A stretch of 42,894 nucleotides of DNA from an uncultured bacterium (lineage in GTDB: Bacteria > Hinthialibacterota > Hinthialibacteria > Hinthialibacterales > Hinthialibacteraceae). Positions 67-31,301 of the stretch are shown here, piece after piece. The position numbers and the translations under genes were made by a program. The notes beneath the pieces are model-generated. The model worked only from the letters and a program-made list of their open reading frames with translations, made no database searches and was not told the origin of the DNA. The stretch is from NCBI GenBank assembly GCA_964449065.1, contig CAYVAZ010000005.1, positions 1 to 42,894 of the forward strand, in the 5' to 3' direction. How positions within the stretch are numbered: position 1 is the stretch's first letter; each line of letters opens with the position of its first letter.

Positions 67-1095
67 CTATTGTTTTTCCCATTGTTCTACATCCAATTGG
101 CTGTTTTGGGCTTGCACAGGCCCGATGTATTCGGTGGCAACCACAATATCGTCGAACCAGACTTTACTGACGCGGCCGCGCGGGGCTTTGGTGATGTAGA
201 CGTAGGTCCAGATGTAGTTAATGAGAAGTTCCTCGGAGGTTCGCCATTGGAAGCCATTGAAGGTGTTATCGGCTTCGGCATCCGGCTGCCACCAGCCGCC
301 CGCCCAATTGCCGTTGGGAAACCCATTGCCGACGTGGCTTACAATTTGGCCGTCTACTTCCCAAAGTTTTCCATCGATCCAAAAGGCTTGCTCACCGTTT
401 GACGCATCCACAGGGTCATTGAGTTTGACCATCATTTCGACACAAATCCATTCGCCTAGTTCCACATTCGGGTGGGGTACGCCTGACAAAAAAGGCGTTC
501 CCCAATAGTTGCCGTCACCGTGCACATTCATGCCTTGCCAATAGGTGTAAAAATCCCACTGCCAGTCACTGCCGTGGGGTTCGATACCGGTAGTAAACCG
601 TTTTGCGCCGTCGGGTCTTTCCCCGGCACCGCCCTGCGGCCAGGGGGTGGAGGGATTGAAGCCTCCCAAATGCGTGCCGAAGTGATGGATGGGAGCGCAC
701 TCAGGATCGAATTTGACATAGGTGCGGGCAAAGATTTGTTTGTATCCGGGCTGGAGCCTGCGGTAGAGTTGCGCGCCGGTTCCCTGCCCGGCGGTATGGG
801 TAATCAATAAGGATTGTTTGCCGCCGGATGCGGTGGGAACATCATCCGAAAAGGACATGTTTTGTTTGTCACTTGCCGTTTCCCAACGGGAAGCCATTGC
901 GTTGATGGATTCTTCTTCAAAGTTTTCCACGAAGATTACGTTGGGATCGGTATCGATCCCCTGATCGCCGGGATACTTAGAAGCGATGCCATTTTGTATT
1001 TGCGGCAAACGTGCTTCTTGAGATGAAACTACTAGAGGATAAACGCTTATCATAATCGAGCAAAACATGCATCCTAATGTTATGTTTCTATACAT
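67..1095 (-). CDS. Secreted protein, probable polysaccharide-lyase-like/ConA-type beta-jelly-roll domain, with C-terminal VxxWxxx tag
   Basis: Start re-called at ATG 1095 (MYRNITLG...) behind AAGGA; the longer ORF-track start lies inside a REP palindrome. N-terminal hydrophobic signal ends VSS-Q. Motifs FVENFE, IFARTYVKFD, GEWICVEMMVKLN, AFWIDG and VWFDDIVVATEYIGP resemble lyase-like jelly-roll proteins (from memory, not searched). Confidence 0.6.
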   Translation of the reverse strand: MYRNITLGCMFCSIMISVYPLVVSSQEARLPQIQNGIASKYPGDQGIDTDPNVIFVENFEEESINAMASRWETASDKQNMSFSDDVPTASGGKQSLLITHTAGQGTGAQLYRRLQPGYKQIFARTYVKFDPECAPIHHFGTHLGGFNPSTPWPQGGAGERPDGAKRFTTGIEPHGSDWQWDFYTYWQGMNVHGDGNYWGTPFLSGVPHPNVELGEWICVEMMVKLNDPVDASNGEQAFWIDGKLWEVDGQIVSHVGNGFPNGNWAGGWWQPDAEADNTFNGFQWRTSEELLINYIWTYVYITKAPRGRVSKVWFDDIVVATEYIGPVQAQNSQLDVEQWEKQ

Positions 1096-1131
1096 TTGAA
1101 TTTCCTTTTCGATTTTTTTTAGTAGAAGAAA

Positions 1132-1158
1132 TAGGGGCACATTGCAATGTGCCCCTAC
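1132..1158. repeat. REP-like perfect palindrome TAGGGGCACATTGCAATGTGCCCCTA(C), copy 1
   Basis: 26-bp perfect palindrome in an intergenic gap. The identical core recurs at 25772-25799. GTAG...CTAC ends are typical of GTAG-family REP elements. Confidence 0.8.
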
Positions 1159-1190
1159 CTACGAATTGCCCAAGAAAGAATTTAAATCGT

Positions 1191-2426
1191 TTAAAATTCC
1201 GCGAAGCCGTTGATCGAGGCATCGCTGAACGGTCCGTCTATCAACAGCAATTGCGTACCGGTAACGTCTTCAATGGTGACAATCAATCCGAGTTGGCTGT
1301 ATGAGATTCCTTTGATGACGGCTGCCCCGCGGTCCGGGTTTAACTGAACAAATAAATCGCCGTCATTGTTGAGGCGGCCAAAATCTTCTTGACGGTAGAG
1401 CCGGATAGAGCGGGCGGCTCCGTTTTCACCTGCGGTAACAATAAAGGTATCACCAGTTGTCAAGCTGACTTGACCGGTGTTCATCCCTATTGGCGCATTC
1501 ACGTTTTGAGGAAATACGGCGATAACTTCCGCGTCAAATCCGCTCTCTTCGATTTCCAAAATGGGTTCGCTGGGCCGGGGCGTAGCCGTCGGGCGTGGTG
1601 TTGGAGTCGCCGTCGCGGCGGGTGTCGGTGTTGCCGTGGGAGCCTGCTGCGGCAGCGATACTTTGGATTTTGCAAACCAGCTGATTGTGCCTTGATTTTC
1701 CAGACGCATAAAAGCTTCGATATTGCCGTCTTCATCCAGCGTGCGGTATCCCCGGTCCGTAATGGCAATATCCACAAAATCACCGGATAAATCGGCTTTG
1801 GAGGGCAGCGGAAGCGCTTTGCCGAAGTTGAGAACGATACCGTCTTCTTTAAAGACATAATATCCTTCATCAACAGGCTCAAAATCCACGACTTCATCGG
1901 TACGGAAGGTTTCAAAACCGTGGTTAACCGCGGTGCCGAAAAAGGCCATGGATCCATCTTCATAAAGAACGGTATAGCCCTCATCGTCATCCGTTAGTTC
2001 CATATCAACCGCGCCGTCTTTTTCTAGGAAACCGCGAAGTTTGGCATCGCCCACGGTGACGATGGTGCCGTCTTCACGCAAAAAGTAGAAGCCGCTGTTG
2101 GCAGTAAGTTCCATGTCCACAACATCCTGGCGGGAACTGACAGGATGACCGAAGACAATCGCGTCTCCAAAGGAATGGACGGTACCATCCTCTTCCACCA
2201 CGTAATACCCCATGCCGCTATGCGTTAGGGTTAAATCGACGGCATCGGCGTTTTGGGGGAAGCCGCGGTTGACAGCGCTGCCGGAAAACTGGATTGTTCC
2301 ATCATCCAATAAAACGTAAATCGAACGCTCGCCCTCGGCAATTTCAAAATCCACCGCTTCTCCAACGGCTTGACCGGAGAAGACTCCTATGATGACTAGC
2401 GATATACAACTATGTATCCATTTCAT
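1191..2426 (-). CDS. Secreted protein: six ~38-aa repeats (probable six-bladed beta-propeller), Pro/Thr linker and C-terminal domain
   Basis: Likely start ATG 2426 (MKWIHS..., AAGGA 8 nt upstream); alternative start 2435. Signal peptide present. Six repeats of consensus [AV]VD[FM]E[LI]T...GYY[VF]L.EDG.[IV]..FG.A...G. Linker PQQAPTATPTPAATATPTPRPTATPRP. Ends SINGFAEF. Confidence 0.7.
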   Translation of the reverse strand: MKWIHSCISLVIIGVFSGQAVGEAVDFEIAEGERSIYVLLDDGTIQFSGSAVNRGFPQNADAVDLTLTHSGMGYYVVEEDGTVHSFGDAIVFGHPVSSRQDVVDMELTANSGFYFLREDGTIVTVGDAKLRGFLEKDGAVDMELTDDDEGYTVLYEDGSMAFFGTAVNHGFETFRTDEVVDFEPVDEGYYVFKEDGIVLNFGKALPLPSKADLSGDFVDIAITDRGYRTLDEDGNIEAFMRLENQGTISWFAKSKVSLPQQAPTATPTPAATATPTPRPTATPRPSEPILEIEESGFDAEVIAVFPQNVNAPIGMNTGQVSLTTGDTFIVTAGENGAARSIRLYRQEDFGRLNNDGDLFVQLNPDRGAAVIKGISYSQLGLIVTIEDVTGTQLLLIDGPFSDASINGFAEF

Positions 2427-2437
2427 AATCAACATCC

Positions 2438-2968
2438 TTAATTGGTGATTTCAAACCGGTCATACACAAATTCGATGCGTTCCATGTAGCGGGTCGAGCC
2501 ATCTACATTAAGCGGCGGGAAGGAAAAACTGCGCGGCCATGCGTTTAAAACGTTGATGCGTAAAGCCCGTGATCCGCGGGAATCAATGAGATCAATTTCA
2601 ATTCTGCGCTTTTGGAAGTCGCCATCAATTACATCATCACGCCAATCACGCATTTGCTCATCAAACACACCATGCAGGACCAACGGTGGATAAGAGGTGG
2701 CCCCGGAACTTAGTTCATTGCCCTGTAACGTAACCGACGTTTCGTTTTCCAAGCCTTCGATCATAAATACTTGTCCGACCTGCGCGAGGCCGATGATCTC
2801 GAGATCAATGGTGGCGGTTTCGGGTATTTCTCTCTCGTCGAATGGGTCAAAATCCGACGGAGTAACACTGTCTCCTTCCGAACCGGTTTGTTGACCGATG
2901 GCCCAAGCACCGGTCAATACCAATGCGGCAAGCGCCCCAAATAGAAAAAGCCGTTTTGATTTGATCAT
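2438..2968 (-). CDS. Phage T4 gp19/Afp1-like tail tube protein with N-terminal signal peptide
   Basis: ATG 2968 with AGGAG RBS. Body shows the gp19-family pattern LEI.G...I.GLE.E...G...Y..L.L.G.....W...V..G...+R.I.I.L.D..G....R....NAWP.....P.LN......E.IE..Y..FE. N-terminus MIKSKR-LFLFGALAALVLTG-AWA is a Sec signal. Confidence 0.75.
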   Translation of the reverse strand: MIKSKRLFLFGALAALVLTGAWAIGQQTGSEGDSVTPSDFDPFDEREIPETATIDLEIIGLAQVGQVFMIEGLENETSVTLQGNELSSGATSYPPLVLHGVFDEQMRDWRDDVIDGDFQKRRIEIDLIDSRGSRALRINVLNAWPRSFSFPPLNVDGSTRYMERIEFVYDRFEITN

Positions 2969-3018
2969 TCTTGTTCTCCTTACAGAAATATTTTCATGTT
3001 TATACATTACATAAGAGT

Positions 3019-3048
3019 ATGATACTGTAAATGGAAGAGATGTGTCTA
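3019..3048 (-). promoter_or_regulatory. Candidate sigma70 promoter for the tail-tube/propeller operon
   Basis: Minus strand TAGACA-N18-TATCAT, about 50 nt upstream of ATG 2968. Confidence 0.35.
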
Positions 3049-3151
3049 CATCCTTATGTGAAATGTTGTCATGACTTCATCACAGAACTCATTTAAAAAA
3101 AACAAGAATTCTGGTATTGTATTACCAATGCGGTTTTAAAAGGGAGTGATC

Positions 3152-4591
3152 ATGGCGAAAGAGAAACTCAACGTTCTGGTTTTAATGGGGGATGACCATG
3201 CCACATACGCGTATGGGGCGTATGGCCATCAAACGCCAAAGACACCGAATTTGGACGCGTTTGCGGCAAGCGGCGTACGGTTCAGCCGGGCCTTTTGCAA
3301 TTCGCCGGTGTGTACGGCAACACGGCAATCGTTGTTAACAGGGAGGCTGCCGCATTCGATTGGCGTAACCCAATTGCGTTCCGCGCTCTCAGCGGATACC
3401 ACAACAATTGCTGACGTACTTCAGGCGAATGGTTATATCACAGCCGCGTACGGCAAGATGCATTTTAACAGCACTTTAAAACACGGCTTTGAGCACCGGC
3501 TATATCACCAACAGCACCGCGAATATCTCAAAGAAAATCCACCAAAGCCGGTGCCGGATGATATAGAAGCGCTCCCGCAATGGCGGCCGTTTCGCGATCA
3601 CGCGCGGGTATGGCTCAACAGCATGAATATCCCCTATGGGGCGTATGATAAAGATATGCTCAATACCTGGATTGCGGAACAATCCAGCCAATTTTTGATT
3701 GATCACAAGGATGACACGTTTTGCTTATTCAGCAGCTTTAACCAGCCGCATTCGCCGTTCCGCTATCCGATTGAATATGCGAAAACGTATAATCCAGCGG
3801 ATATGAAAGTCCCAGAAAAGGGACCGGAGGACGACTGGCATATCCCCGATATTTATTACGATTTGACGCATGAAGAGAAGCAAGGAATCAACGCGGCTTA
3901 TTACACCGCGGTGGCGTATTTGGATAGAAATATCGGTATTGTGCTGGATACGCTGGAAGAAACCGGGCTCGCTGAGAACACGATGGTGGTGTATATTGGA
4001 GATCACGGCTATGCGCTGGGGCATCACGGCCGGTTTGAGAAACATACCTTGTTTGAAGAATCGATTCATTCACCGTTGGTATTTCGGGTACCGGGTATGA
4101 GCAAGGCAGGTCATGTTGCAGAGCAACTGACTGAATTCATCGACATCTTCCCAACGATAATGGAAGCAACCGGTTGTCAAATTCCTAGCGAAGTGGAAGG
4201 CAACAACCTGCTCCCCGCCATCCAAGGTGATGACTCCCCCAACCGGGAGATGGTGTTTTTGGAGTATTTTGAGAATGAAGAAGCGGGAATCCGGACCGAC
4301 CGCTATAAATACATTTACGGCAGCGGCAAACGCATGAGGCAGGATGGGTATTATTCCAGCCGCGATCCGCACAAGCGGTATCAATTGCTGTATGATCTGC
4401 AACAAGACCCACAAGAGCATCACAACCTTGCAGAGGATAAACAATATGCGGATAGGATTGATCAATTTGAGGCGGAGATGATCCGGCGGTTTGAAGCGAC
4501 CTCACCAATTAAAGATCGAATGCCTAGTGATTTGGGTGTTCATGATCAGTTGGATTTTTATTTGAAGGCGTGGGATTCGTATATAATGTGA
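3152..4591 (+). CDS. Formylglycine-dependent sulfatase (S1 family), probably cytoplasmic
   Basis: NVLVLMGDD, CTATRQSLLTGR (C-x-A-x-R signature), GKMH, PHSP and GDHG...HG..EK motifs. GGGAG RBS before ATG 3152. No signal peptide. Confidence 0.92.
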   Translation: MAKEKLNVLVLMGDDHATYAYGAYGHQTPKTPNLDAFAASGVRFSRAFCNSPVCTATRQSLLTGRLPHSIGVTQLRSALSADTTTIADVLQANGYITAAYGKMHFNSTLKHGFEHRLYHQQHREYLKENPPKPVPDDIEALPQWRPFRDHARVWLNSMNIPYGAYDKDMLNTWIAEQSSQFLIDHKDDTFCLFSSFNQPHSPFRYPIEYAKTYNPADMKVPEKGPEDDWHIPDIYYDLTHEEKQGINAAYYTAVAYLDRNIGIVLDTLEETGLAENTMVVYIGDHGYALGHHGRFEKHTLFEESIHSPLVFRVPGMSKAGHVAEQLTEFIDIFPTIMEATGCQIPSEVEGNNLLPAIQGDDSPNREMVFLEYFENEEAGIRTDRYKYIYGSGKRMRQDGYYSSRDPHKRYQLLYDLQQDPQEHHNLAEDKQYADRIDQFEAEMIRRFEATSPIKDRMPSDLGVHDQLDFYLKAWDSYIM

Positions 4592-4612
4592 TGGCTAAAG
4601 TGTTGCAATCAA

Positions 4613-5026
4613 CTATTTTTTCAGTTTGCTTAAATTGAGCCAATGCATTGGTAGGCTTTTCATGTCTTTAAAATCTGGGTCGGTAGATACGAATAATTCA
4701 CATTTATTTGCTAATGCAATGGCTATATGTAACGCATCCATCGCTCTTAGATTCTCCTTTAAAGCGATGTCAAACGCTGAAGTAAAAACCGTCGATGGTG
4801 ATGGAAGAAAGTGAACTTCATCAAAAATACTTTTGTAAGACTCAATGAGATTTGTTTCTTGTAAACGATGAGGTTTAAGAAGAACTTCAAGCCTCACCAG
4901 GCTTGAGTAGGCCAGCGTCCATTCTTCTTCAAGTATATTGAGTTGTTGATCAATGAATGATTGATACGTTTCGATTTATTCACACGAAGTAATCCAAACC
5001 GAAGAATCGATATAGGCAATCTTCAA
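4613..5026 (-). pseudogene. PIN-domain (VapC-like) toxin interrupted by an in-frame TAA at codon 17
   Basis: TTG 5026 gives MKIAYIDSSVWITSCE, then TAA at 4978-4976. The same frame continues IETYQSFI...SSLVRLEVLLKP...LRAMDALHIAIA...FVSTDPDF. PIN acidic residues lie on both sides of the stop. Confidence 0.8.
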
Positions 5027-5030
5027 TTCT

Positions 5031-5258
5031 TCACCCTCTGATTTCATGCAAATCTTTCAGGATTTCTTCATAAGTACGACGCGGTATGTTTAAGGCTCTC
5101 GCTTTATCAATTTCTTTTTTAATTTCAGACCACTTGCCTTTACCGGAATCAGGAATGCTACCATCACAAAATTCAATGATTATTTCTTCTCCCTTTTTAA
5201 GAGAGGGAGATTTGACTTTCAATAAGCCTTCTGCTGAAACTTCTGCTGTCAAATACAT
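5031..5258 (-). CDS. Putative antitoxin (75 aa) of the PIN toxin
   Basis: GAGGAG RBS. Lies directly upstream of the PIN gene. N-terminal beta-type segment resembling AbrB-like antitoxins; C-terminus ILKDLHEIRG. Confidence 0.65.
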   Translation of the reverse strand: MYLTAEVSAEGLLKVKSPSLKKGEEIIIEFCDGSIPDSGKGKWSEIKKEIDKARALNIPRRTYEEILKDLHEIRG

Positions 5259-5342
5259 TGATATCTCCTCATTTAATTATCATCTAATTTTATCTTATAA
5301 CAAAATGATAATCAAATAAATATTTGCCGAGTATCATCATCG

Positions 5343-6749
5343 TTAAAGCATAGGATAATACTTGCTTGCGTCCTCCAGAATGAGTATCCAGTCTTGGCCG
5401 TAGCCGTTGGTTGGCGGGGTGTAGGTTTGGAAGCCTGTGGCATCCGCGGTGTGGATATGATATGACACTCCATAACGGGGATCAAACCAGGTTTCTTTAA
5501 CGCTTTGGCCGCTGATTCGGCTGATATCGATGGAGAATTTCTCTCCGCGGGGTGAGTAAATAAAGGCAAATGAGTTGTCGTTCGCTAAAGCCGCGCGGAT
5601 TTTGGCTCCACCGGTTGTAGGGCCATCGAGAATGAAATCTTGTGCGGGTACCAGTTTGGTGAAGGGTTTGGATTCGAAAAGCTTGCGCACGTGTCCCATC
5701 TGAAACGCTCCGGGATGATCAAGGGCTTCATACCAGGGAATGTTTGCTTCAATCACCCGGGGTTTATCCGGCTGCCACATTTGCCAGATATTGTTGTTGC
5801 CGTAAGTGTGGCCGCAGGCTCCCGCTAAGAGTGACCAATAGGCAGCGGTGCGGCAGTCATCATCGGTAAAGCGGTGATGGGGCGGATTGCCTTTCAGATA
5901 AAAACCGACCACGATGGATTCGTAACGGGGCTCGCCATCCAAAGTAGGTTTTGTGGGAGTCAGTTTATAGTCGTGTTCTGTGAATAATCCCGTATCATGA
6001 TCAATGGCAGCGTGGGAAGATTGAAACATGTTGAAGTCGAGCCAGTCTTCGTTATGAAAGTAAGGGGATGACAATCCCGGGCCGCGTGGATGGAAGGTGA
6101 TAAGGTGTCTGCCATCGTCACCGTCTCTCAATCCTGCTGCCATCGCGCTAATGATTTCATGCTCTTCATCCGAATCGATGTTTTCATCGCCGCCGAGTAT
6201 CCAGATGATGGGTTTGTCTTTGTAGCGTTCGCCCAAATAGCGGCCAAATAGTTCTGCATTTTCTTTGTTAAAAATGGATTGATCATAACGGCGGGCGGTT
6301 TTCCAATACGAACCCCATGTCGGCAGCATGCCTACATACAGACCGAGTTCTTCTGCTTTGTTGACGATGAAATCAACGTGCCTGAAATAGGCTTCATTTG
6401 GTTGAGTTGGATCTTTATCGATGAGAGGAACATCGCCATACGGATTGGGGTCGGTTAAGCCTTCCAACTGAGCCAAGACGACGGCTTGGATAACGGTGAA
6501 TCCTTTTTCGGCACGGTTGGTTAAGTACTGCTCTGCTTCTTCGCGGTTTAAGCGGTGAAAGAGTTCCCAAGCGGTATCGCCTAAATAGAAGAACGGTTCG
6601 TCGTTTTGGTATTGTAAATAACGGCCGTTATCTGTCACTTGCAGGGGTCGAAGAGATTGCGCGAAACCTTGTATTGATACGGTGAGTATGAGTATAACCA
6701 AGTGAAAACATCTTACAATTTGGATTCCATTCATGTTCGATCTAAGCAT
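5343..6749 (-). CDS. GH140-like glycoside hydrolase (DUF4038 plus C-terminal collagen-binding-like domain), secreted
   Basis: PFFYLGDTAWELFHRL, KGFTVIQAVVL, IIWILGGD, LITFHPRG, DFNMFQS, LDGEPRYE, GHTYG and WFDPRYG...DWILILE. Signal peptide ends GFA-Q. Confidence 0.88.
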   Translation of the reverse strand: MLRSNMNGIQIVRCFHLVILILTVSIQGFAQSLRPLQVTDNGRYLQYQNDEPFFYLGDTAWELFHRLNREEAEQYLTNRAEKGFTVIQAVVLAQLEGLTDPNPYGDVPLIDKDPTQPNEAYFRHVDFIVNKAEELGLYVGMLPTWGSYWKTARRYDQSIFNKENAELFGRYLGERYKDKPIIWILGGDENIDSDEEHEIISAMAAGLRDGDDGRHLITFHPRGPGLSSPYFHNEDWLDFNMFQSSHAAIDHDTGLFTEHDYKLTPTKPTLDGEPRYESIVVGFYLKGNPPHHRFTDDDCRTAAYWSLLAGACGHTYGNNNIWQMWQPDKPRVIEANIPWYEALDHPGAFQMGHVRKLFESKPFTKLVPAQDFILDGPTTGGAKIRAALANDNSFAFIYSPRGEKFSIDISRISGQSVKETWFDPRYGVSYHIHTADATGFQTYTPPTNGYGQDWILILEDASKYYPML

Positions 6750-6836
6750 GAAAATCCCCCCATTCTATACGTTGTTATACATTCATTATTACGGGGCTGT
6801 GTATATTTAGGGAGGGATGCGGCAGAGAAAAACAAC

Positions 6837-6865
6837 GAAAGCCGCGCAAGAAATACGCGGCTTTC
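6837..6865 (-). terminator. Intrinsic terminator downstream of 6890-7786
   Basis: GAAAGCCGCG/CGCGGCTTTC 10-bp stem followed on the minus strand by GTTGTTTTT. Confidence 0.7.
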
Positions 6866-6889
6866 CTTTCAATATTTAGGTTGAATTCA

Positions 6890-7786
6890 TTAATACACGG
6901 ACCATTCTCTTACAGTTACTGGAGGCTGTGCTCCTTCTTCGGTACCATCGGCCGTGACTGGTACACCGAGAGCCCATTGGATTGCACGTTGAAACATAAT
7001 CGCTCCATCCGGCGATAATGCAACCAAAGCTAAATCCATACTGGTAGGATCAAAGGCTTGCACGTTAGGAGAAAAGCCTAAGAAAACGCGCCGATTTGGT
7101 GCCGGTTCCGCGCCGGCAGGAACCGGGGCATCATCATCGCCTTTATATCCGGATGCTCCTTCTTCCACAACAACCAAGTTGTACCGTTCGGGATCCACAA
7201 TAAAACCTGTCTTCGTTAATGGAATTCCTATTGGGGCCAATGAATCCAGTGCCATTCCAGATAAAATTCCATTATCTGTAAACGTAATCAAAACGATTTC
7301 ATTCATCTCCCACAAGCCGGTAATCGGGTGGGTATTATCGATCACTTCGATTTCAAAATCACCTGCCGCGTTGCTGCGTCCTGATTCCGGCGTGAGCCAG
7401 AGTCCGCCGGGACGGTCGACGCTGCCACGCATGAGCACATCTTCCGTATCTAAGATGGGGATGTTTTTATCAATATATTGATCGGCGTCCGCGGAATTAA
7501 CGGATTCATGAATAAAGACCAAATCGAAGTTGGCTTCCGCATCGGAGGCATTGTCTTCCGTGCCCTGCACGAAGGTGACATCATATCCCAATCCAGGAAT
7601 CACAACTTCGTTGTTTGCTTCATCAAAAAGTGATATGCCATCCGTCAATAGTAAAATATAAACTAAATTGATCAGCGTATCCGGGTCTCCCCCACCTACC
7701 ATATAGACGCTTTGCGCTTTTACTGCTTTTGAAAAATGCCCAAATAACACTACACTCAAGATAATATAAAACACGGCTTTCTTCAT
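6890..7786 (-). CDS. Secreted acidic protein of unknown function with C-terminal VREWSVY tag
   Basis: AGGAGAGG RBS. Signal peptide MKKAVFYIILSVVLFGHFSKAVKA-Q. Very acidic. Elements LGYDVTFV, FDLVFIHES, HPIT and FQRAIQWALG are compatible with a class I glutamine amidotransferase-like fold (weak). Confidence 0.65.
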   Translation of the reverse strand: MKKAVFYIILSVVLFGHFSKAVKAQSVYMVGGGDPDTLINLVYILLLTDGISLFDEANNEVVIPGLGYDVTFVQGTEDNASDAEANFDLVFIHESVNSADADQYIDKNIPILDTEDVLMRGSVDRPGGLWLTPESGRSNAAGDFEIEVIDNTHPITGLWEMNEIVLITFTDNGILSGMALDSLAPIGIPLTKTGFIVDPERYNLVVVEEGASGYKGDDDAPVPAGAEPAPNRRVFLGFSPNVQAFDPTSMDLALVALSPDGAIMFQRAIQWALGVPVTADGTEEGAQPPVTVREWSVY

Positions 7787-7816
7787 TTTTCCTCTCCTCT
7801 ACATTGAAATTGCAAT

Positions 7817-7834
7817 TATTGAATCGATTCAATA
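7817..7834. promoter_or_regulatory. Perfect 18-bp palindromic operator TATTGAATCGATTCAATA (LacI-family-like); second site at 7912-7925
   Basis: Perfect palindrome with central CG, 30 nt upstream of the start at 7786. Near-identical TTGAATCGATTGAA at 7912-7925. Confidence 0.6.
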
Positions 7835-8049
7835 TACAGATATCCTAGCAGAAAGTCTAGCATTTTAATCAAATTTCATGCGATATTTCACTTAATCTCT
7901 CTACAGATTATTTGAATCGATTGAAAAAGAGGGGGGCATGGTGGTTGTATTTACCACATTGATTCAGGTAAAATTACTTTTCTCTAATCCTTTTTGTATA
8001 TCTAAGAACAGATATAGTCTGAATATAAAACTTAAATAAGGCTAAACCG

Positions 8050-9159
8050 TTGCGAATTTTACACATATATAAAGATTATTATCCCCCGACCTGCGGCGGG
8101 ATTGAGATTGCGATCAACCGAATTATTGAATCCACGCGCGATGAATGCGATGAAATCTCTGTTTTGATTTGCAACCGCAAACCGGGTACGGAGTTTGCCG
8201 AGGTGGAAGGGACTCCGGTGTATAAAGCGGGCGAGTGGGGGCGGTTTTTATCAACACCGGTTTCGCCGGCGTTTCCGTTTTTGCTGCGGAAACTCAAAGC
8301 AGAAATTTTGCACTATCACATTCCCAATCCCACAGCGGTGATCTCGCATTTGATGATGAGGCCATCCGGCAAAGTGGTGGTGCATTACCACAGCGATATC
8401 GTGCGGCAAAAGAATTGGATGCCTATTTACCAACCCTTTCGTCGGCGTTTTCTCGCTCAAGCGGACCGAATTATTACCACATCTCCAAATTATTTAGACT
8501 CTTCTGAGGATTTGCAGCCGTTTCGGGACAAGACTCGCGTTATCCCGTTCGGCATCCCCTTACACCGGTTTACTCGCAGCCCGGAACTCAATGCCAGCGC
8601 GCAAACCATCAAAAAGCGGTATGGAGAACGGTTGGTATTGTTTGTGGGAATCTTGCGGTACTACAAAGGGATCGAGTATTTAATTCGGGCGATGAAGCAT
8701 GTAGACGCGAAATTGTTGATCGTAGGTACAGGTCCCCTCCTTCCGGACTTGATCGAACAAGCGGAGCAATCGGGGTTTAAAGATAAAATTGTGTTTGTGG
8801 GGCAGGTGGAATCGGTAATCCCCTATTATTTTGCATCCAGCGTGTTTTGTTTGCCTTCCATCTATCGTTCCGAGGCGTTTGGATTGGTATTAACCGAAGC
8901 CGCGGCATGTGGTTTGCCGTTGATTTCAACGGATATCGGTACCGGAACTTCCTATATCAATCTGCATGAAAAAACCGGATTGGTCGTGCCGCCGTGTGAT
9001 GAACATTCGCTTGCGTATGCTATCAACTTCATTTTAAATGACCCGTTTAAGCAAGAGCAGTATGGATCGGCCGCCCGCAAGCGTGCCGAAGAACTTTTTT
9101 CTGTAGAAAAAATGGGACGAGACATCTTAAATCTGTATAATGAAATTCTCAAAGAATAA
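8050..9159 (+). CDS. Glycosyltransferase family 4 (GT-B)
   Basis: MRILHIYKDYYPP..GGIE, HYHSDIVRQK, LFVGILRYYKG and PS..RSEAFGLVLTEAAACGLPLIST (E-x7-E motif). TTG start. Confidence 0.93.
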   Translation: MRILHIYKDYYPPTCGGIEIAINRIIESTRDECDEISVLICNRKPGTEFAEVEGTPVYKAGEWGRFLSTPVSPAFPFLLRKLKAEILHYHIPNPTAVISHLMMRPSGKVVVHYHSDIVRQKNWMPIYQPFRRRFLAQADRIITTSPNYLDSSEDLQPFRDKTRVIPFGIPLHRFTRSPELNASAQTIKKRYGERLVLFVGILRYYKGIEYLIRAMKHVDAKLLIVGTGPLLPDLIEQAEQSGFKDKIVFVGQVESVIPYYFASSVFCLPSIYRSEAFGLVLTEAAACGLPLISTDIGTGTSYINLHEKTGLVVPPCDEHSLAYAINFILNDPFKQEQYGSAARKRAEELFSVEKMGRDILNLYNEILKE

Positions 9160-9242
9160 TAAAAAAGCATTTAAAATCATGATTATTTATGGTATTATAT
9201 ATAGAATAATGATTTTGGGGAACATCAGAGTATTGGGACAGC

Positions 9243-10757
9243 ATGATAAAATACAATAATATTTTAACGGTTTTTTGTTGTTTAGGTTTGGCATCACTTA
9301 CACATTCCGCTGAATTGCACACTTCGGTAAACGATTTATCGCCCGTTCAGTTTGTGTACCCAAATGCCAATGGGAGCCGTTTGGGTGCCGGTGTCGCGAA
9401 AGTAGGAGATTTCAACGGCGACAATGAATTTTTAGACTTCGCTATAGGCGCGCCCGGATTTAACGGCATACTGAATGGGCGCATTCAAGACAAAGGGGCC
9501 GTGTTTATTGTTGACGGTAGATCTGTTTTATCTGGGAACCCGACGATTGATCTTTCCCATTCTGACACCAAGCAAACAATTATTACCGGTACACAAGACA
9601 TACCAATCGGTTCATCAATCTCAAACGCGGGTGATATCAACGCCGATGGATTTGGTGATCTATTGATAGGATCCCAAACCGGCAAACAAGGGCTTTTGAT
9701 TTACGGCCAATCCTCACCGCCAAAGCAAATTATTCCCGAACAATATCAAGAGTATGGTGTGGTAATTAAAGATACAGGATTCAGCACTTCTATTGCGGGA
9801 GATTTTAATGGAGATGGGTTTCAGGATGCCGTTTTTGGTTCTCCGTCCGCGGAAGTAATTATACAAAATAATCAGGAACTTGTCTTTGGAGGATTTACTC
9901 TCCTATACGGTAACACGGTACTCCCAAAATTGATCCAAGCCTTTATTCCTTCACCTCATCATTTTTACAACCGCGATACTCCCAATACTTCGTATGCCCG
10001 TTTTGTCTCAGGGAATACCGATATCAATACAGACGGATTCAGCGATATCATCATCACGGCATTTACGGAGGCCGGCGAAAAAGAAAACAAAGCCTATGTA
10101 GTATTCGGTTCTCCGGATGCGTTTTCAAGCGGCAAAGCGAAATACGGTTTGATCCTGCGCGGTATCCATGAATTCGTTTCTTCATGCGGTGATGTGGATG
10201 CTGACGGCTTTCCGGAATTGATAGCCGGTTTGCCGAACAACGAAACCCTTTTATTGAAAGGCAAAGCCAATTTGCAAGGTACCATCAATTTGAATGACTC
10301 CCCTTCACAATGGGGAATGGTGATACGAGGAGCGGACCGGGTTTACCATGCGGGAGATTTGAACGGCGACGGGTATCAAGATTTGGTCGCGGCCATGCCT
10401 CATGCCAAAGTTGACAATCAAGTAATGACTGGACAAGTGGTATTTTTATTTGGAAGACCGCAACTGCCTGAGGTTGTGAATATAGAAGAATTACGAAATG
10501 GCGGTTTGACTACAATTGATTATGTTTTGGTCAATGGACTTCAAGCTTTTGATACATTTGGAGCCAGCGTAGCAGCGCTGGGAGATATTCAAAATGACGG
10601 TTTTGGGGATGTGTTGATCGGCGCCCCCACTCAACCGCTGCCCGGTGATTCCAACCCGCAACGTTCCGGCGGGGTCTATTTAATCCAAGGTAGAGACTTG
10701 TTTTATGGTCTGCAGACGTACCGCAGTTCGTTCTCTCAGCGGGGCAAAAAGCAATAA
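9243..10757 (+). CDS. Secreted FG-GAP/integrin-alpha-like beta-propeller protein
   Basis: Signal peptide and about seven GD[FIVL]N.DG[FY].D....G[AS]P...G.V...[FY]G calcium-binding repeats. Confidence 0.88.
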   Translation: MIKYNNILTVFCCLGLASLTHSAELHTSVNDLSPVQFVYPNANGSRLGAGVAKVGDFNGDNEFLDFAIGAPGFNGILNGRIQDKGAVFIVDGRSVLSGNPTIDLSHSDTKQTIITGTQDIPIGSSISNAGDINADGFGDLLIGSQTGKQGLLIYGQSSPPKQIIPEQYQEYGVVIKDTGFSTSIAGDFNGDGFQDAVFGSPSAEVIIQNNQELVFGGFTLLYGNTVLPKLIQAFIPSPHHFYNRDTPNTSYARFVSGNTDINTDGFSDIIITAFTEAGEKENKAYVVFGSPDAFSSGKAKYGLILRGIHEFVSSCGDVDADGFPELIAGLPNNETLLLKGKANLQGTINLNDSPSQWGMVIRGADRVYHAGDLNGDGYQDLVAAMPHAKVDNQVMTGQVVFLFGRPQLPEVVNIEELRNGGLTTIDYVLVNGLQAFDTFGASVAALGDIQNDGFGDVLIGAPTQPLPGDSNPQRSGGVYLIQGRDLFYGLQTYRSSFSQRGKKQ

Positions 10758-10866
10758 GACCGGATTGAGTTCATATCCTTCAAAATTTCCTTAGATACAA
10801 CAGCACTCAACTTTCAACCAATTCCAAGTATAATCGCATTTTTATTAATCAAACGGCGGGATAGCT

Positions 10867-11922
10867 ATGAGCACAACGATGAACGAAACGCAAGATGTCC
10901 ATATCGTGAAGATCAATCCATTGATTTCACCACGGGAGATGAAAGAAGCGTATCCCATGAGCGAAAAGGCTACGGAAACGGTTCTGGAAGCGCGGAATAC
11001 CATCAAGAGAATGCTGCGGGGAAAAGAAGACCGCTTTTTGATGATCGTGGGGCCGTGTTCAATTCATGATGCCGGGATTGCGGAAGAATATGCCCAACGG
11101 TTGGCCGCTTTGCAGCAGAAAGTGAAAGACCGGATTGTTTTGGTAATGCGGGTTTATTTTGAAAAACCCCGTACCACTGTCGGGTGGAAGGGATTGATCA
11201 ACGACCCGTATTTGAACGACAGTACAGACATCGAGCATGGAATAACCACCGCACGCAAGATTCTTCTAAACATAAACGATTTGGGACTGCCGGCCGCGAC
11301 CGAATTTCTCGATCCGATCGTGCCGCAATACATTGCGGAATTGGTCACTTGGGCCGCGATTGGCGCGCGTACCACCGAATCACAAACCCACCGCGAGATG
11401 TCAAGCGGTCTTTCGATGCCGGTTGGGTTTAAAAACAGCACAGAGGGCAATTTGCAAATTGCTATCGATGCCCTGCACTCTTCCAACTATCCGCACAGTT
11501 TTCTCGGGATCGATCAGGAGGGGAAAGCCTCGATCATCAGTACCAGCGGTAATGTTTGGGGCCATATTATTTTGCGCGGCGGGCGTTCCGGTCCAAACTA
11601 TGATCGCGAAAGTGTTGAACAAACCAAAACATCATTAGAAAAAGCACAAATCCCACCTTATGTCATGATCGATTGCAGCCACGCGAACTCCAGCAAAGAT
11701 TTCACCAAACAGGAAACCGTCCTGCAATCCATCATCGAACAGAAACAGTCCGGTCAAGACTGCATATTCGGCGCGATGCTGGAAAGCAACATCCACGAAG
11801 GAAAGCAAAATATTCCTGCCGATTTGTCAGAATTGAAGTATGGCGTTTCGGTAACAGATGGCTGCATCAGTTGGGAAACGACGGAACGGATCATTCAAGA
11901 AGCGTATAAAAAGTTGGGGTAG
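10867..11922 (+). CDS. aroG: 3-deoxy-7-phosphoheptulonate synthase, class I-alpha (AroF/G/H family; isoenzyme not determinable)
   Basis: GPCSIHD, MRVYFEKPRTTVGWKGLINDP, IGARTTESQTHRE, DCSHANS and YGVSVTDGCI. Confidence 0.96.
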   Translation: MSTTMNETQDVHIVKINPLISPREMKEAYPMSEKATETVLEARNTIKRMLRGKEDRFLMIVGPCSIHDAGIAEEYAQRLAALQQKVKDRIVLVMRVYFEKPRTTVGWKGLINDPYLNDSTDIEHGITTARKILLNINDLGLPAATEFLDPIVPQYIAELVTWAAIGARTTESQTHREMSSGLSMPVGFKNSTEGNLQIAIDALHSSNYPHSFLGIDQEGKASIISTSGNVWGHIILRGGRSGPNYDRESVEQTKTSLEKAQIPPYVMIDCSHANSSKDFTKQETVLQSIIEQKQSGQDCIFGAMLESNIHEGKQNIPADLSELKYGVSVTDGCISWETTERIIQEAYKKLG

Positions 11923-11929
11923 ATCCCCC

Positions 11930-12766
11930 TTATTTTGATTGCCAGTTTTTTACATTTGAACCACTGTTCTTCAACATAATTTCAATGTGGAAAAGGATTG
12001 GCCATCGTTTACCAGTAACAAATAACCGTTCGTTATCTTTGTCATAGGCGATACCGTTCAATACATCCGGCCGGGGAAAGCCGCCGATTGGGGGCAAGAG
12101 ACCGCTTAAATCGATGATGGAGTTGACCTTTCCGCTTGCCGGATCAATCCGAACAATTGTGTCCGTCATCCATACGTTGGCATAAACTTCTCCTTTGATG
12201 TATTCCAACTCATTCAATTGGCGGATTGGATTGCCGTTCAACGTGACTGTTACATCGCGCACCAATTCAAACGTATGGGGATTGAGAAAGTGAAGCGTAT
12301 CCGTACCATCGCTCATGATGAGGTATGTACCGTCATGTGTAATCCCCCAGCCCTGCCAAGGGTAAGCGAACCGCCGTAATTCCGCAAACGAAAATTGATC
12401 GTAAACAAATCCGGTATTGCTGAGCCAAGTGAGTTGAATTAACTTGCCTTCAAAGAGGGTTATGCCTTCTCCAAAGAACTTGTTTTCCAAATCGTGTTTT
12501 TGCAGCACTTCTCCGGTTTCCAACTCAACCCAGCGGAGGGAACTTTCCCCAAACTGGCCGGTACCTTCATAAAGCATCCCGTTTTCATAAACCAATCCTT
12601 GCGTAAAGGCATTGCGGTCGTGATCATATTGATTGACCACACGATAGGTATAAACCGGAATATCCGGTGGAGTTTGTTGAATGGTGACTTTCTTCGCCGG
12701 GATATCACCTTGCGGCAGATTGAGCATGAGATATCCAAAAAAAAGTAAACAAGACAAACTGTGCAT
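11930..12766 (-). CDS. Glutaminyl-peptide cyclotransferase (bacterial/plant five-bladed propeller type), exported, with appended C-terminal VKNWQSK tag
   Basis: HD..AFTQGL, LYEGTG..G.S, FGEGIT, QLTW, GWGIT, LNELE, ANVW and DVLNGIAYD...LFVTGKRWP. Hydrophobic N-terminus. Confidence 0.93.
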   Translation of the reverse strand: MHSLSCLLFFGYLMLNLPQGDIPAKKVTIQQTPPDIPVYTYRVVNQYDHDRNAFTQGLVYENGMLYEGTGQFGESSLRWVELETGEVLQKHDLENKFFGEGITLFEGKLIQLTWLSNTGFVYDQFSFAELRRFAYPWQGWGITHDGTYLIMSDGTDTLHFLNPHTFELVRDVTVTLNGNPIRQLNELEYIKGEVYANVWMTDTIVRIDPASGKVNSIIDLSGLLPPIGGFPRPDVLNGIAYDKDNERLFVTGKRWPILFHIEIMLKNSGSNVKNWQSK

Positions 12767-13561: not shown

Positions 13562-13751
13562 AGATGAACTGTTCGAATCAATCAGAACGTATTTTTGGCA
13601 ACATCGCTTTAAATAATGAAAAAGCCCCAAATGGCCCCTAACATACCCCAAGGCAACACCCTGTTAATAGTTGTGGGTAAACCTCAGCCAATCTTGGGGA
13701 GGGAATTCGCATCCATCAAGATTGAATTGCGAAAAATCAAAGAATTTTGAA

Positions 13752-13907
13752 ACAAGTAAAGAAACACAAGTAAAGAAACNNNNNNNNNNNNNNNNNNNNN
13801 NNNNNNNNNNNNNNNNNNNNNNNNNNNNNNNNNNNNNNNNNNNNNNNNNNNNNNNNNNNNNNNNNNNNNNNNNNNNNNNACAAGTAAAGAAACACAAGTA
13901 AAGAAAC
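13752..13907. repeat. 14-bp tandem repeat (ACAAGTAAAGAAAC)n spanning a 100-N assembly gap
   Basis: Two exact units at 13752-13779 and two at 13880-13907, with N run at 13780-13879. Confidence 0.85.
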
Positions 13908-13954
13908 GCATTTACAGTATGCGGTAACCATGCAATACTGTATATCCTTTTGAC

Positions 13955-13988
13955 AAAAAAAGGCCCCGGAGAGGAGGGACCTCCGGGG
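13955..13988 (-). terminator. Intrinsic terminator downstream of smc
   Basis: Minus strand CCCCGGAG-GTCCCTCCT-CTCCGGGG-CC-T7. Confidence 0.8.
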
Positions 13989-14062
13989 AAAGAGATGCAC
14001 GGGCGCACATTACTGTGCGGGTGGAGCCGTTGGAGCGGCTCCATCTTTGTATACAGGAAAAC

Positions 14063-29496: not shown

Positions 29497-30039
29497 TTAT
29501 CTGCGAGCGGCGAAAGGATAGCCCTTTTTGTATTCGCCGTAGGTGAAGTGCAGAATGTCTCCATTGCTTTGCAATCCATTGGAGGCGTCAAAAATAATGT
29601 TCGGTTCATGAACCGAACTGGGTCCCACACTGGTCATGAAAAATGCGACATTCCAGGTTTGGTCATAGATAGCCGCGTTTTGAATTCTACCGTGATGGGT
29701 TGCGCCTGGTTCGGCATGGTACTGACCAAGAAACCACTCGTTGTACCCCGGAAAATCTCTACCTTTTACGAAGATATCTGCAATAGAACTGGAGAAATAA
29801 GCAATCGGTGAAGTGACAAACTTATGCTGCGCGGGATTCCCATCCAAATGAGGCGGCCAAGCGTTGTTATCTAACTTATACATGGTATAGGCCTCACCCA
29901 AGCCTTTCATTTCTGCCTGAGCACGGGCATGTTTTGCGCGCATTTGGGCATTTAAAAAATTCGGGACGGCGATAGCGGCTAAAATACCGATGATAGCGAC
30001 AACGATCAGCAATTCGATTAGGGTGAAACCTTTGTTCAT
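29497..30039 (-). CDS. Type IV pilin/pseudopilin-like protein (prepilin N-terminal cleavage/methylation domain)
   Basis: Start re-called at ATG 30039 (AAGGGA RBS). MNKG|FTLIELLIVVAIIGILAAIAVPNFLNAQ; Y.LDNN..P; TSPIAY; SVGP; FDASNGLQSNGDI. Confidence 0.9.
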   Translation of the reverse strand: MNKGFTLIELLIVVAIIGILAAIAVPNFLNAQMRAKHARAQAEMKGLGEAYTMYKLDNNAWPPHLDGNPAQHKFVTSPIAYFSSSIADIFVKGRDFPGYNEWFLGQYHAEPGATHHGRIQNAAIYDQTWNVAFFMTSVGPSSVHEPNIIFDASNGLQSNGDILHFTYGEYKKGYPFAARR

Positions 30040-30073
30040 TTGACGATCCCTTAATTTTGTGATATGGCGCCGA

Positions 30074-30102
30074 ATGGTAAAGAAGTAAGGAAAGCAAGTC
30101 AA
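30074..30102 (-). promoter_or_regulatory. sigma70-type promoter of the downstream pilin-like gene
   Basis: Minus strand TTGACT-N17-TACCAT, about 35 nt upstream of ATG 30039. Confidence 0.5.
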
Positions 30103-30154
30103 GAGGGTAATGAATGAAACGTATACCATTAGCACAAAACTAACGGCGTGTAAA

Positions 30155-30220: not shown

Positions 30221-30772
30221 TTAGCTGCCGACGCGAACGATATCTCCGATACTGCGCAATCCGTTAGACGGCTGGTAAATAAAGAGTGGAGTGTGTTCCA
30301 CATCCGGTCCCATGCTCCAAATGTAGTATACAGTACCACTATGGGTACCCGGCAATTCGATCACTTTACCCTGTTTCGCTAACGATTCCAAAGAAGGATC
30401 ATTTGCCATCCGTGCCGGAGGAACAACCGGAAAATAATCCGCATGATATTGTCCGTGGCTCCACTGTAAGGTCCCAATTCCAACTGTGGTTTCTTTTTGA
30501 AAGGGATCGGTTGGCGGTGTGGAAATATATGCGACCGGTGTGGTCATCGGGTTGTTTTGCCATTCCGGATGTCCCGGTTTGTGCGGCGGGAAAATGCCGT
30601 TATCCATGCGGTACATGGCATAGACATCCAACCATGAGCGCATTTCCGAGTTGCATTTGGCAATTTGCGCGCGTACTTGCGCGTTCAAAAAGTTTGGTAC
30701 AGCAATGGCAGCCAAAATCCCTATAATGGCGACAACAATCAGCAATTCAATCAAAGTAAAACCTTTTTTCAT
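30221..30772 (-). CDS. Type IV pilin/pseudopilin-like protein, paralogue of 29497-30039
   Basis: MKKG|FTLIELLIVVAIIGILAAIAVPNFLNAQ; YRMDNG.FP; TTPVAYI...P.DPF; WSMGPD; YQPSNGLRSIGDI. GGGGGAG RBS. Confidence 0.92.
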   Translation of the reverse strand: MKKGFTLIELLIVVAIIGILAAIAVPNFLNAQVRAQIAKCNSEMRSWLDVYAMYRMDNGIFPPHKPGHPEWQNNPMTTPVAYISTPPTDPFQKETTVGIGTLQWSHGQYHADYFPVVPPARMANDPSLESLAKQGKVIELPGTHSGTVYYIWSMGPDVEHTPLFIYQPSNGLRSIGDIVRVGS

Positions 30773-30941: not shown

Positions 30942-31301
30942 TTAAGTTACAGTAGGAACTTTCTTTTTGGCTTTGGGTTTGTCATCATCCAAAGTAGCAC
31001 CCATCACATCGATGCCGGCATTGGTCATTTGGGGTTTGTGGTTGATGAGGACATCCAATTCATCATGCGGACGGGGTATCACGTGAGCTGCAATCAGTTC
31101 GCCAACCCGGCGGGCGGATGCCGCGCCGGCATCGACCGCGGAAGAGACATCGGCCACTTCGCCTTGGATTTTGACTACCGCCGCGGCAGGGTCAGAAAAT
31201 TCGATTTGAGTAAGAACAGTATCAGCGGCTTTTAGAGCGGCATCGGCGGCTTCAATCGCACCGACCAATCCACGGGTTTCAATCAATCCAAGTGCGGTCA
31301 T
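30942..31301 (-). CDS. Bacterial microcompartment shell protein (single BMC domain) with C-terminal extension
   Basis: ALGLIETRGLVGAIEAADAALKAA...V.I.GEVADV..AVDAG...HVIPRPH. About 30-aa tail ending KPKAKKKVPTVT. AAGGA RBS. Confidence 0.92.
   Translation of the reverse strand: MTALGLIETRGLVGAIEAADAALKAADTVLTQIEFSDPAAAVVKIQGEVADVSSAVDAGAASARRVGELIAAHVIPRPHDELDVLINHKPQMTNAGIDVMGATLDDDKPKAKKKVPTVT

Follow-up and report, generated by a model that had tools for sequence, protein, structure and literature searches.

Four tailed proteins in the window

The window analyzed here is the whole stretch of 42,894 nucleotides that forms positions 1 to 42,894 of contig CAYVAZ010000005.1 (assembly GCA_964449065.1, forward strand), from an uncultured bacterium of the Hinthialibacterota. 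Four of its genes, all on the minus strand, encode proteins with hydrophobic N termini and a short C-terminal tail in which an aromatic residue is followed by exactly three more, placing it at position -4 when the last residue is -1. That tail, called the tag below, is the subject of this report. The first-pass annotation of the window had written it as [VI]-x-x-[WF]-x-x-x-COOH and proposed a sorting signal carried by the four proteins. The four endings are real, each directly preceding a stop codon: ...QLDVEQWEKQ (67-90), ...DASINGFAEF (1191-1214), ...PVTVREWSVY (6890-6913), and ...GSNVKNWQSK (11930-11953). They do not fit the motif equally well. Scored with a position-specific scoring matrix (PSSM) of the 11-residue tail, a protein at 6890-7786 reached 26.3 bits, a glutaminyl cyclase 7.7 bits, a lyase-like protein 1.6 bits, and a repeat protein 1.2 bits, so one of the four is canonical and three are off-consensus variants or decayed.

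The canonical tag belongs to a 298-amino-acid protein encoded at 6890..7786 (minus strand). The protein has a type I signal peptide, a GATase1/ThuA-like alpha/beta body, and an ADGTEEG...PP linker, followed by the tail TVREWSVY-COOH (coded at 6893-6916, with the stop codon at 6890-6892), and scans of Pfam and NCBIfam returned no family for it. An AlphaFold2 (AF2) model gave a predicted local distance difference test score (pLDDT) of 88.3 and a predicted template modeling score of 0.86, and pLDDT fell below 50 only at residues 1-5 and 7-20, in the signal peptide, and at residues 291-298, the tail. The best Foldseek matches of the model were GATase1/ThuA-like chains, a weak likeness with template modeling scores of 0.4-0.48. 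All homologues of the protein, 8/8 in the phylum and 15/15 overall, end in V-x-x-W-x-[VIL]-[YFHQ] with the Trp invariant and in exact register, and the linker ahead of the tail carries indels of 0-6 residues among the 15 tail-keeping homologues. Another tagged family kept the tail in 12/16 distinct genes. Judging from these endings, the tail is under purifying selection, and by the model it is detached from the fold of its carrier. That the tail would not be integral to the carrier fold had been a premise of the first proposal, and the low pLDDT, the linker indels, and the exchange of tails among homologues described below all bear it out.

The three weaker tails are best read through their relatives. 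The exported repeat ("propeller") protein at 1191..2435 (minus strand) ends in the degenerate F-variant ...SINGFAEF-COOH. In 14/17 orthologues of the protein, position -4 is F or Y in exact register, and several of these show clean ends such as INAFSLY, ITGFSLF, and LSNFSLY; of the other three, two are longer by one residue and the third ends in an unrelated sequence. The propeller tail is therefore an F-variant specific to its family and degenerate in the source genome, and an explanation of it as a chance match was overturned by the endings of its orthologues. The glutaminyl cyclase at 11930..12766 (minus strand) matches PF05096 over residues 33-263 (Pfam, 5.5e-96) and carries a 15-residue appended tail ending in NVKNWQSK-COOH. 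In 9/9 copies (our own and eight orthologues), a polar linker is followed by a Trp 4-6 residues before the end, and the canonical ending was found in 0/9; by these copies, the cyclase tail is a loose or decayed variant of the tag. Finally, the exported lyase-like protein at 67..1140 (minus strand), which has no family match, ends in DVEQWEKQ-COOH. Trp at -4 occurs in 4/8 close copies (at least 61% identity, own included) and in 0/11 distant paralogues, and VEQWEKL is the ending of a tagged GSDH protein encoded at another locus of the genome. From its pattern of retention, the lyase-like tail is a decaying variant.

The tag across the proteome and across phyla

How common the ending is was determined in the source genome (5.22 Mb in 515 contigs, 87% complete). 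A home-made proteome of open reading frames (ORFs) of at least 90 amino acids was selected by a dicodon coding score, with long ORFs as the training set, and overlaps were removed greedily; made without a proper gene caller, it holds 3,452 ORFs and covers 73% of the DNA. Since the stop codon sets where an ORF ends, a test of register is independent of the choice of start. The ending [VI]xx[WF]xxx-COOH occurred 87 times in exact register and 10-48 times at each of 27 shifted registers. For signal-peptide-like ORFs without a further transmembrane (TM) segment, the count was 65 against 3-25. Trp at -4 was found 118 times with 49.5 expected, and the other ten terminal positions had 21-62. The proteome-wide count called for by the first-pass annotation thus lies far above its shifted-register controls.

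Register and enrichment stood, and the motif itself had to be sharpened. From the 87 listed tails we derived the 11-residue consensus [EG]-[PG]-[TS]-x-V-x-[EDN]-W-[SE]-[LVI]-[YF]-COOH. The corresponding PSSM, at a threshold of at least 10 bits, retrieved 56 of the 3,452 C termini and 17 of 614,983 internal windows (0.1 expected by that rate), and the score distribution was bimodal. Stop-terminated frames that end in the tag number 61 once truncated and short ORFs are included. In some orthologues the tag is lengthened by one or two residues (...GWDIYE, ...GWELFK, ...NWELSK, ...SAFGTFE). These extended tails share the spacing from Trp (or Phe) to the end that is seen in GspK and PilC2 (below), so a carboxylate exactly three residues after Trp is preferred and not obligatory.

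Tagged proteins are exported proteins of many kinds. Signal-peptide-like N termini were called on 53/56 tagged ORFs and on 1505/3396 untagged ORFs (odds ratio 22, p=1.5e-15), by a crude heuristic that flags 1,558 of the 3,452 ORFs (45%); the predicted enrichment on exported relative to other proteins was thus recovered. One of the three tagged ORFs lacking such a start is a DUF1501 protein with a Tat-type RRSFF signal. The signal peptides of the 56 are classical type I, and a lipobox-like sequence was found in 1/56. The 56 ORFs fall into 36 BLAST clusters, 30 of them singletons. Their domains include LamG, CBM9, WD40, Kelch plus metalloprotease, GSDH, heparinase II/III, Tat-DUF1501, FG-GAP, and CAP, and 32/56 have no Pfam match. 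The linker region is enriched in G, D, T, and P.

The tag had been thought lineage specific, and this proved wrong: it is spread over most of the phylum and into Sumerlaeota and UBP4 genomes. We searched DNA for the loose pattern V-x-[NDEQHKY]-W-x-Φ-[YF]-stop, with the reversed pattern as control, in a phylum sample of 35 species genomes in families f1-f6. The source genome gave 26 matches against 2 in the control. Counts were 22-74 (control 2-8) in all 20 genomes of f1, 6-27 (control 1-4) in f2 and f3, and 8-30 (control 1-7) in f6. Single genomes of f4 (G001; 1 against 0) and f5 (G027; 3 against 4) are therefore not enriched. Outside the phylum, four Sumerlaeota genomes gave 44 against 2, 30 against 3, 17 against 1, and, in ACE_SUM1, 5 against 2; a UBP4 genome gave 14 against 1, and a Poribacteria genome, with 2 against 7, showed no enrichment. 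A strict pattern run over the species-genome collection matched 94 stretches. The genomes with multiple strict matches were metagenome-assembled genomes (MAGs) labeled "Candidatus Omnitrophota" or "bacterium," after which came four MAGs of Sumerlaeota and one of UBP4. A homologue of the tagged CBM9 protein is labeled Candidatus Hinthialibacter antarcticus (61% identity), and according to PMC9324843 OLB16 was formerly placed in Omnitrophota; taken together, the two point to Ca. Hinthialibacterota as the probable phylum. The CBM9 family had no homologue in G001, G027, G028, G039, or G044, where the LamG proteins are of other architectures.

Could the tail be without function, as a chance or compositional pattern or the inherited end of one expanded family? 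Three of the four flagged tails are weak and within reach of a motif defined post hoc by two positions, as that explanation would have it. The census and its controls refute it, however, with 56 tags where 0.1 are expected, 36 unrelated clusters, exact register kept despite linker indels, and occurrence in three candidate phyla, and we consider it extremely improbable. We conclude, from sequence, that the tag is very probably a genuine C-terminal signal of the sorting type. The proposal of an appended C-terminal tag for sorting or attachment is supported by the enrichment, by the freedom of the tail from its carrier, and by the lack of a model that covers it. No published description of the tail was found in the literature, with supplementary files outside the scope of the search. 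By term search, PMC9324843 and PMC8092238 do not mention C-terminal or sorting, nor pseudopilin (PMC9324843) or pilin (PMC8092238), a search on sorting signals listed papers on Cys-type signals, and the strings EWSLY, DWSLY, EWSVY, DWALY, NWSLY, and EWSLF retrieved irrelevant papers only from literature text.

A short, transferable, and readily recognizable tail marks about 2% of the proteome, with most of its carriers binding or degrading polysaccharides, in at least three poorly known candidate phyla. If the tail is a sorting tag, it predicts the secreted or surface proteome of uncultured degraders, offers a peptide bait for its receptor, and is possibly a minimal portable export tag.

Comparison with known C-terminal signals

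The tail was taken from the outset to fit none of the PEP-CTERM, LPXTG, GlyGly-CTERM, and type IX secretion system (T9SS) signals. Model scans and the absence of a TM helix agree. With both the last 60 residues and the full-length sequences of the 56 tagged proteins as queries, neither Pfam nor NCBIfam returned a C-terminal sorting model. The PEP-CTERM model TIGR02595 matched 0/56 of the last-60-residue segments, and the tails, which stop three residues after the Trp, contain no PEP motif, TM helix, or basic or Arg cluster. For LPXTG/sortase, GlyGly-CTERM/rhombosortase, MYXO-CTERM, and their kin, there was likewise no TM helix after the motif and 0/56 matches in NCBIfam. The T9SS C-terminal domain (CTD) models TIGR04183 and PF18962 also matched 0/56 of the last-60-residue segments in NCBIfam and Pfam with E values up to 1. 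Matches of tagged proteins to a "TafC fimbrial protein" were rejected as due to the shared LamG domain only, at 27-53 bits against a cutoff of 410.

Like the tag, PEP-CTERM (TIGR02595, with exosortase PF09721) is a short module that follows a flexible linker on many unrelated exported proteins, and it takes the same place as the tag in close homologues of a tagged protein. The best 120 database homologues of the tagged CBM9 protein, at 50-71% identity, end in the W-tag in 59 cases and in a tail of the form VPEP-hydrophobic helix-RRRR in 6; most others have an extra domain of about 55 amino acids instead of the tag. As a positive control, TIGR02595 scored above its curated cutoff in 3/3 of the VPEP tails tried. 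Because the CBM9 homologues alternate the W-tag with PEP-CTERM, the tail holds a "choice-of-anchor" position. As to the domain of about 55 amino acids, it is found in P0054, P0099, P0064, P0105, and about 50 other homologues of this CBM9 protein (L007), some labeled Verrucomicrobia, and ends in ...FYRV(R) or ...MLYARSVR. It has no match in Pfam or NCBIfam and may be another undescribed sorting domain.

That shared position, and a T9SS-associated galactose-binding domain on one carrier, could suggest that the tail is a cut-down form of PEP-CTERM/exosortase, T9SS CTD, or sortase-type signal. The PEP motif, TM helix, and Arg cluster that define PEP-CTERM are nevertheless missing from the tag, as is any model match. 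Moreover, exosortase (PF09721) was found in 0/26 genomes of f1-f3, where the tag is richest and to which the source genome belongs, and not in G001; it is present in G027 and in 7/7 f6 genomes. A T9SS CTD sits on similar carrier types and marks folded periplasmic proteins for transport across the outer membrane or for attachment to the surface, but it is a folded domain of about 70-100 amino acids and the tail has 9-11 residues. The T9SS translocon SprA (TIGR04189) was not found in three tag-rich genomes, the source genome (87% complete), G011 (92%), and G039, by a search of imperfect sensitivity, as one Flavobacteriia control genome was positive (2229 bits) and the other was missed. A derivation from a known system is thus largely refuted, and we give it very little credence.

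An aromatic residue at a free C terminus with a reader in the periplasm also recalls the signals of outer membrane proteins (OMPs). The C-terminal beta-signal of OMPs is the last strand of the barrel, with alternating hydrophobic residues and a terminal aromatic, and the ligand of the DegS PDZ domain is YxF. Tag carriers, in contrast, are soluble multidomain proteins on flexible linkers and not beta-barrels, and W-x-[LVI]-[YF] has adjacent hydrophobic residues at -2 and -1 where the beta-signal alternates. PDZ domains bind free C termini with hydrophobic or aromatic last residues, and the tail might be the ligand of a PDZ protease or sensor (Prc/CtpA type or DegS/DegP type), with a role in processing, turnover, or envelope-stress sensing. 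The strict register to a free carboxylate would suit a carboxylate-binding reader, and the genome has nine PDZ_2 matches. PDZ proteases are near universal, however (14/14 control genomes), whereas the tag is confined to a few phyla, and one would not expect a degron to swap places with PEP-CTERM or to persist on about 60 stable enzymes and binding proteins. Finally, the type II secretion system (T2SS) operons encode no recognizable PDZ protein or GspC, with only faint T2SSC/T2SSB matches (E 0.07-0.17) on a 231-amino-acid protein. We consider a PDZ reader improbable.

Pilins as candidate readers of the tag

Cargo selection by the T2SS and related pilus machines is an old unsolved problem, since no linear signal is known for them. 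TcpF and CofJ reportedly have N-terminal export signals, bound by the minor pilins TcpB and CofB of type IVb pili as a minor-pilin trimer. Like the tag, these are short, flexible, linear terminal peptides of secreted soluble proteins, and their reader is a type IV pilin. They differ in being N-terminal, in serving one cargo per system, and in being bound by a minor-pilin trimer.

A close likeness is the C-terminal tail of the adhesin PilC/PilY1. In PMC13533445 and PMC13711793, the final ~10 residues of PilC/PilY1 are described as completing the beta-sheet of the minor pilin PilK/PilX in trans, and GspK of the T2SS as giving the corresponding strand in cis. The PilC/PilY tails have a conserved Trp, then a charged residue or two, and next a hydrophobic residue (PMC13711793). 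The tag layout V-x-[EDN]-W-[SE]-[LVI]-[YF]-COOH agrees with that description of the PilC/PilY1 C-beta. Both tag and C-beta tail (which is also found in MshQ) lie at the extreme C terminus, span about 10 residues, run from Trp through polar or charged to hydrophobic residues, and project freely from a folded body. The spacing matches as well, with W at -5 and I at -2 both in Kingella kingae PilC2 and in the GspK of the source genome, and with W at -4, L at -2, and Y at -1 in the tag. Unlike PilC/PilY1, a single family of beta-propeller adhesins, the tag is on about 60 unrelated enzymes and binding proteins per genome (36 groups), and its carriers mostly do not lie beside minor pilins.

The resemblance extends to GspK of the phylum. 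A GspK of the type encoded on contig C115 of the source genome ends in P-x-I-R-Y-W-K-V-[IL]-R-COOH throughout f1-f3, and AF2 (pLDDT 82.7) models this end as the final strand of a sheet of three. GspK-like proteins of other phyla have Trp-bearing terminal strands too. The tag and the GspK end share a layout, and so the tag resembles an element that GspK gives itself. The source genome has about 121 pilin N_methyl matches, seven secretin domains, two T2SS-type operons, a Tad system, and sets resembling those of type IV pili, and the first proposal had named the expanded pseudopilins as a possible partner. Pilin matches number from 36 to 150 or more in tag-positive genomes of three phyla, and the tag-negative Poribacteria genome has 6. 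Secretin counts range from 3 to 10 in all 35 genomes of the sample and so do not discriminate. Within the window, two GspG-type pseudopilins of one family are candidate partners, encoded on the minus strand at 29497..30135 (PF07963, 1.4e-08) and 30221..30772 (PF07963, 1.9e-08), each with a weak T2SSG match.

We favor, tentatively and at somewhat less than even confidence, a joint reading in which the tag serves for sorting or docking by adding a beta-strand to a pilin of the T2SS or type IV filament machinery, with the cargo exported or displayed. After passing the inner membrane through Sec or Tat, tagged proteins would fold in the periplasm; a receptor would next catch the free tail, which would add as a beta-strand to a pilin of that machinery, and the cargo would be exported or displayed. 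The identity of the reader, a type IV filament pilin engaged by beta-strand addition as for the PilC/PilY1 tails, is by analogy a possibility held with appreciable doubt. Were the receptor a pilin, the newly described strand addition would extend from one adhesin family to general cargo loading. More speculative, and in our estimate unlikely, is that the tag would be a general linear signal for export or display, the first for a T2SS/type IV filament machine, with a strand of about nine residues donated and the cargo riding the pseudopilus through a secretin. The donated strand would then copy the cis strand of GspK and the strand that PilY1 gives to PilK, and the scheme would explain why these phyla retain several secretins along with 50 to 150 or more genes for pseudopilins.

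Several results weigh against a pilin reader. Genome searches identified no candidate receptor. Both GspK-class pilins found lie in T2SS operons and supply their strand in cis (modeled for the C115 type), and no open acceptor like PilK of type IVa pili was seen among these two genes, with about 120 GspG-type pilins outside the scope of that comparison. A separate strandless PilX/PilK class was rejected, as the PF14341 matches were only the N termini of GspK orthologues. In f6, moreover, GspK ends in ...F-L-Y-Y-R-T-[LM]-R, with Y where the tag keeps W. The C115-type GspK as a marker of the tag looked promising within the phylum, where G001 has only a C182-type GspK (named for a second contig) and a weak match and G027 only a weak match, but it fails across phyla: it is strong in the tag-weak ACE_SUM1, and the tag-rich Sumerlaeota G039 and G042 have only distant GspK-like matches, with a best E value of about 2e-7. 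G001 and G027, both poor in the tag, still show 47 and 51 pilin matches, respectively, with 7 secretin matches apiece. Genomes within a phylum are also kin, so distribution counts are not independent. Finally, known T2SS substrates need no beta-strand addition and must be released, according to a PNAS paper (PMC13533445).

Gene neighborhoods lend the pilin reader little. A pilin gene lay within 1 kb of 6/56 tagged genes and of 53/1442 other exported-type ORFs (p=0.02), but the difference was not significant at 3 kb (6/56 and 99/1442) or 5 kb (9/56 and 122/1442, p=0.055). Conserved pilin synteny was rejected as a general feature, with a pilin in the flanks at 1/54 loci of the four families of the window. 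In the C205 family, which was picked for adjacency in the source genome, the figure was 3/17 loci.

A periplasmic or outer membrane reader unrelated to pilins is a serious possibility, one we rate as plausible without expecting it. It might be an outer membrane beta-barrel or a POTRA-type protein that binds by beta-augmentation, or else a lineage-specific noncovalent surface anchor. All of the evidence for a sorting module applies equally to such a reader, and the adjacency, synteny, and GspK co-occurrence that might have pointed to a pilin are weak. Moreover, many of the tagged modules bind or degrade and are typical of proteins kept at the cell surface (CBM9, LamG, heparinase), and the tag alternates with PEP-CTERM, a signal for anchoring to the surface or matrix. 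Here too no candidate receptor was found, however, and a reader of this kind leaves aside both the large pilin sets of all tag-positive genomes and the close match of the tail to pilin-docking tails as published in PMC13711793.

We note further features of the pilin and secretin genes. At G000:C182:2968-5642 (locus L187) of the source genome, the T2SS secretin of the C182 operon is divided between neighboring ORFs, of which one (468 amino acids) has the N0 and Secretin_N domains and the other (416 amino acids) has the Secretin domain, and contig C57 encodes two tandem short secretins of about 365 amino acids without N-domains. The C182-type GspK (G000:C182:8184-9548; locus L250 in G001) continues for about 30 residues beyond a PVIRYRKDM segment that resembles the terminal strand (...RMGWALGEVIREEQRR...), and G001 and a Sumerlaeota genome share this conserved extension. 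In the Sumerlaeota genome G042, 33 bp separate a pilin N-terminal methylation motif (G042:C5:28428-28555) from the end of a tagged gene on that strand, a further example, from a different phylum, of the occasional pairing of tagged and pilin genes.

Elsewhere in the window, the gene at 2438-3007 (minus strand), between the propeller gene and a sulfatase, encodes a 189-amino-acid protein with a signal-peptide-like N terminus and a T4 gp19 tail-tube domain (PF06841, 3e-11); export of such a protein is unusual. A masked stretch at about 13,740-13,850, with runs of N (X in the ORFs at 13664-14044), falls in an intergenic-looking region. Adjoining the two pseudopilin genes, the gene at 30942-31301 (minus strand) encodes a 119-amino-acid protein that by eye resembles a microcompartment shell protein, which fits the bacterial microcompartment genes reported for Ca. 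Hinthialibacter in PMC9324843.

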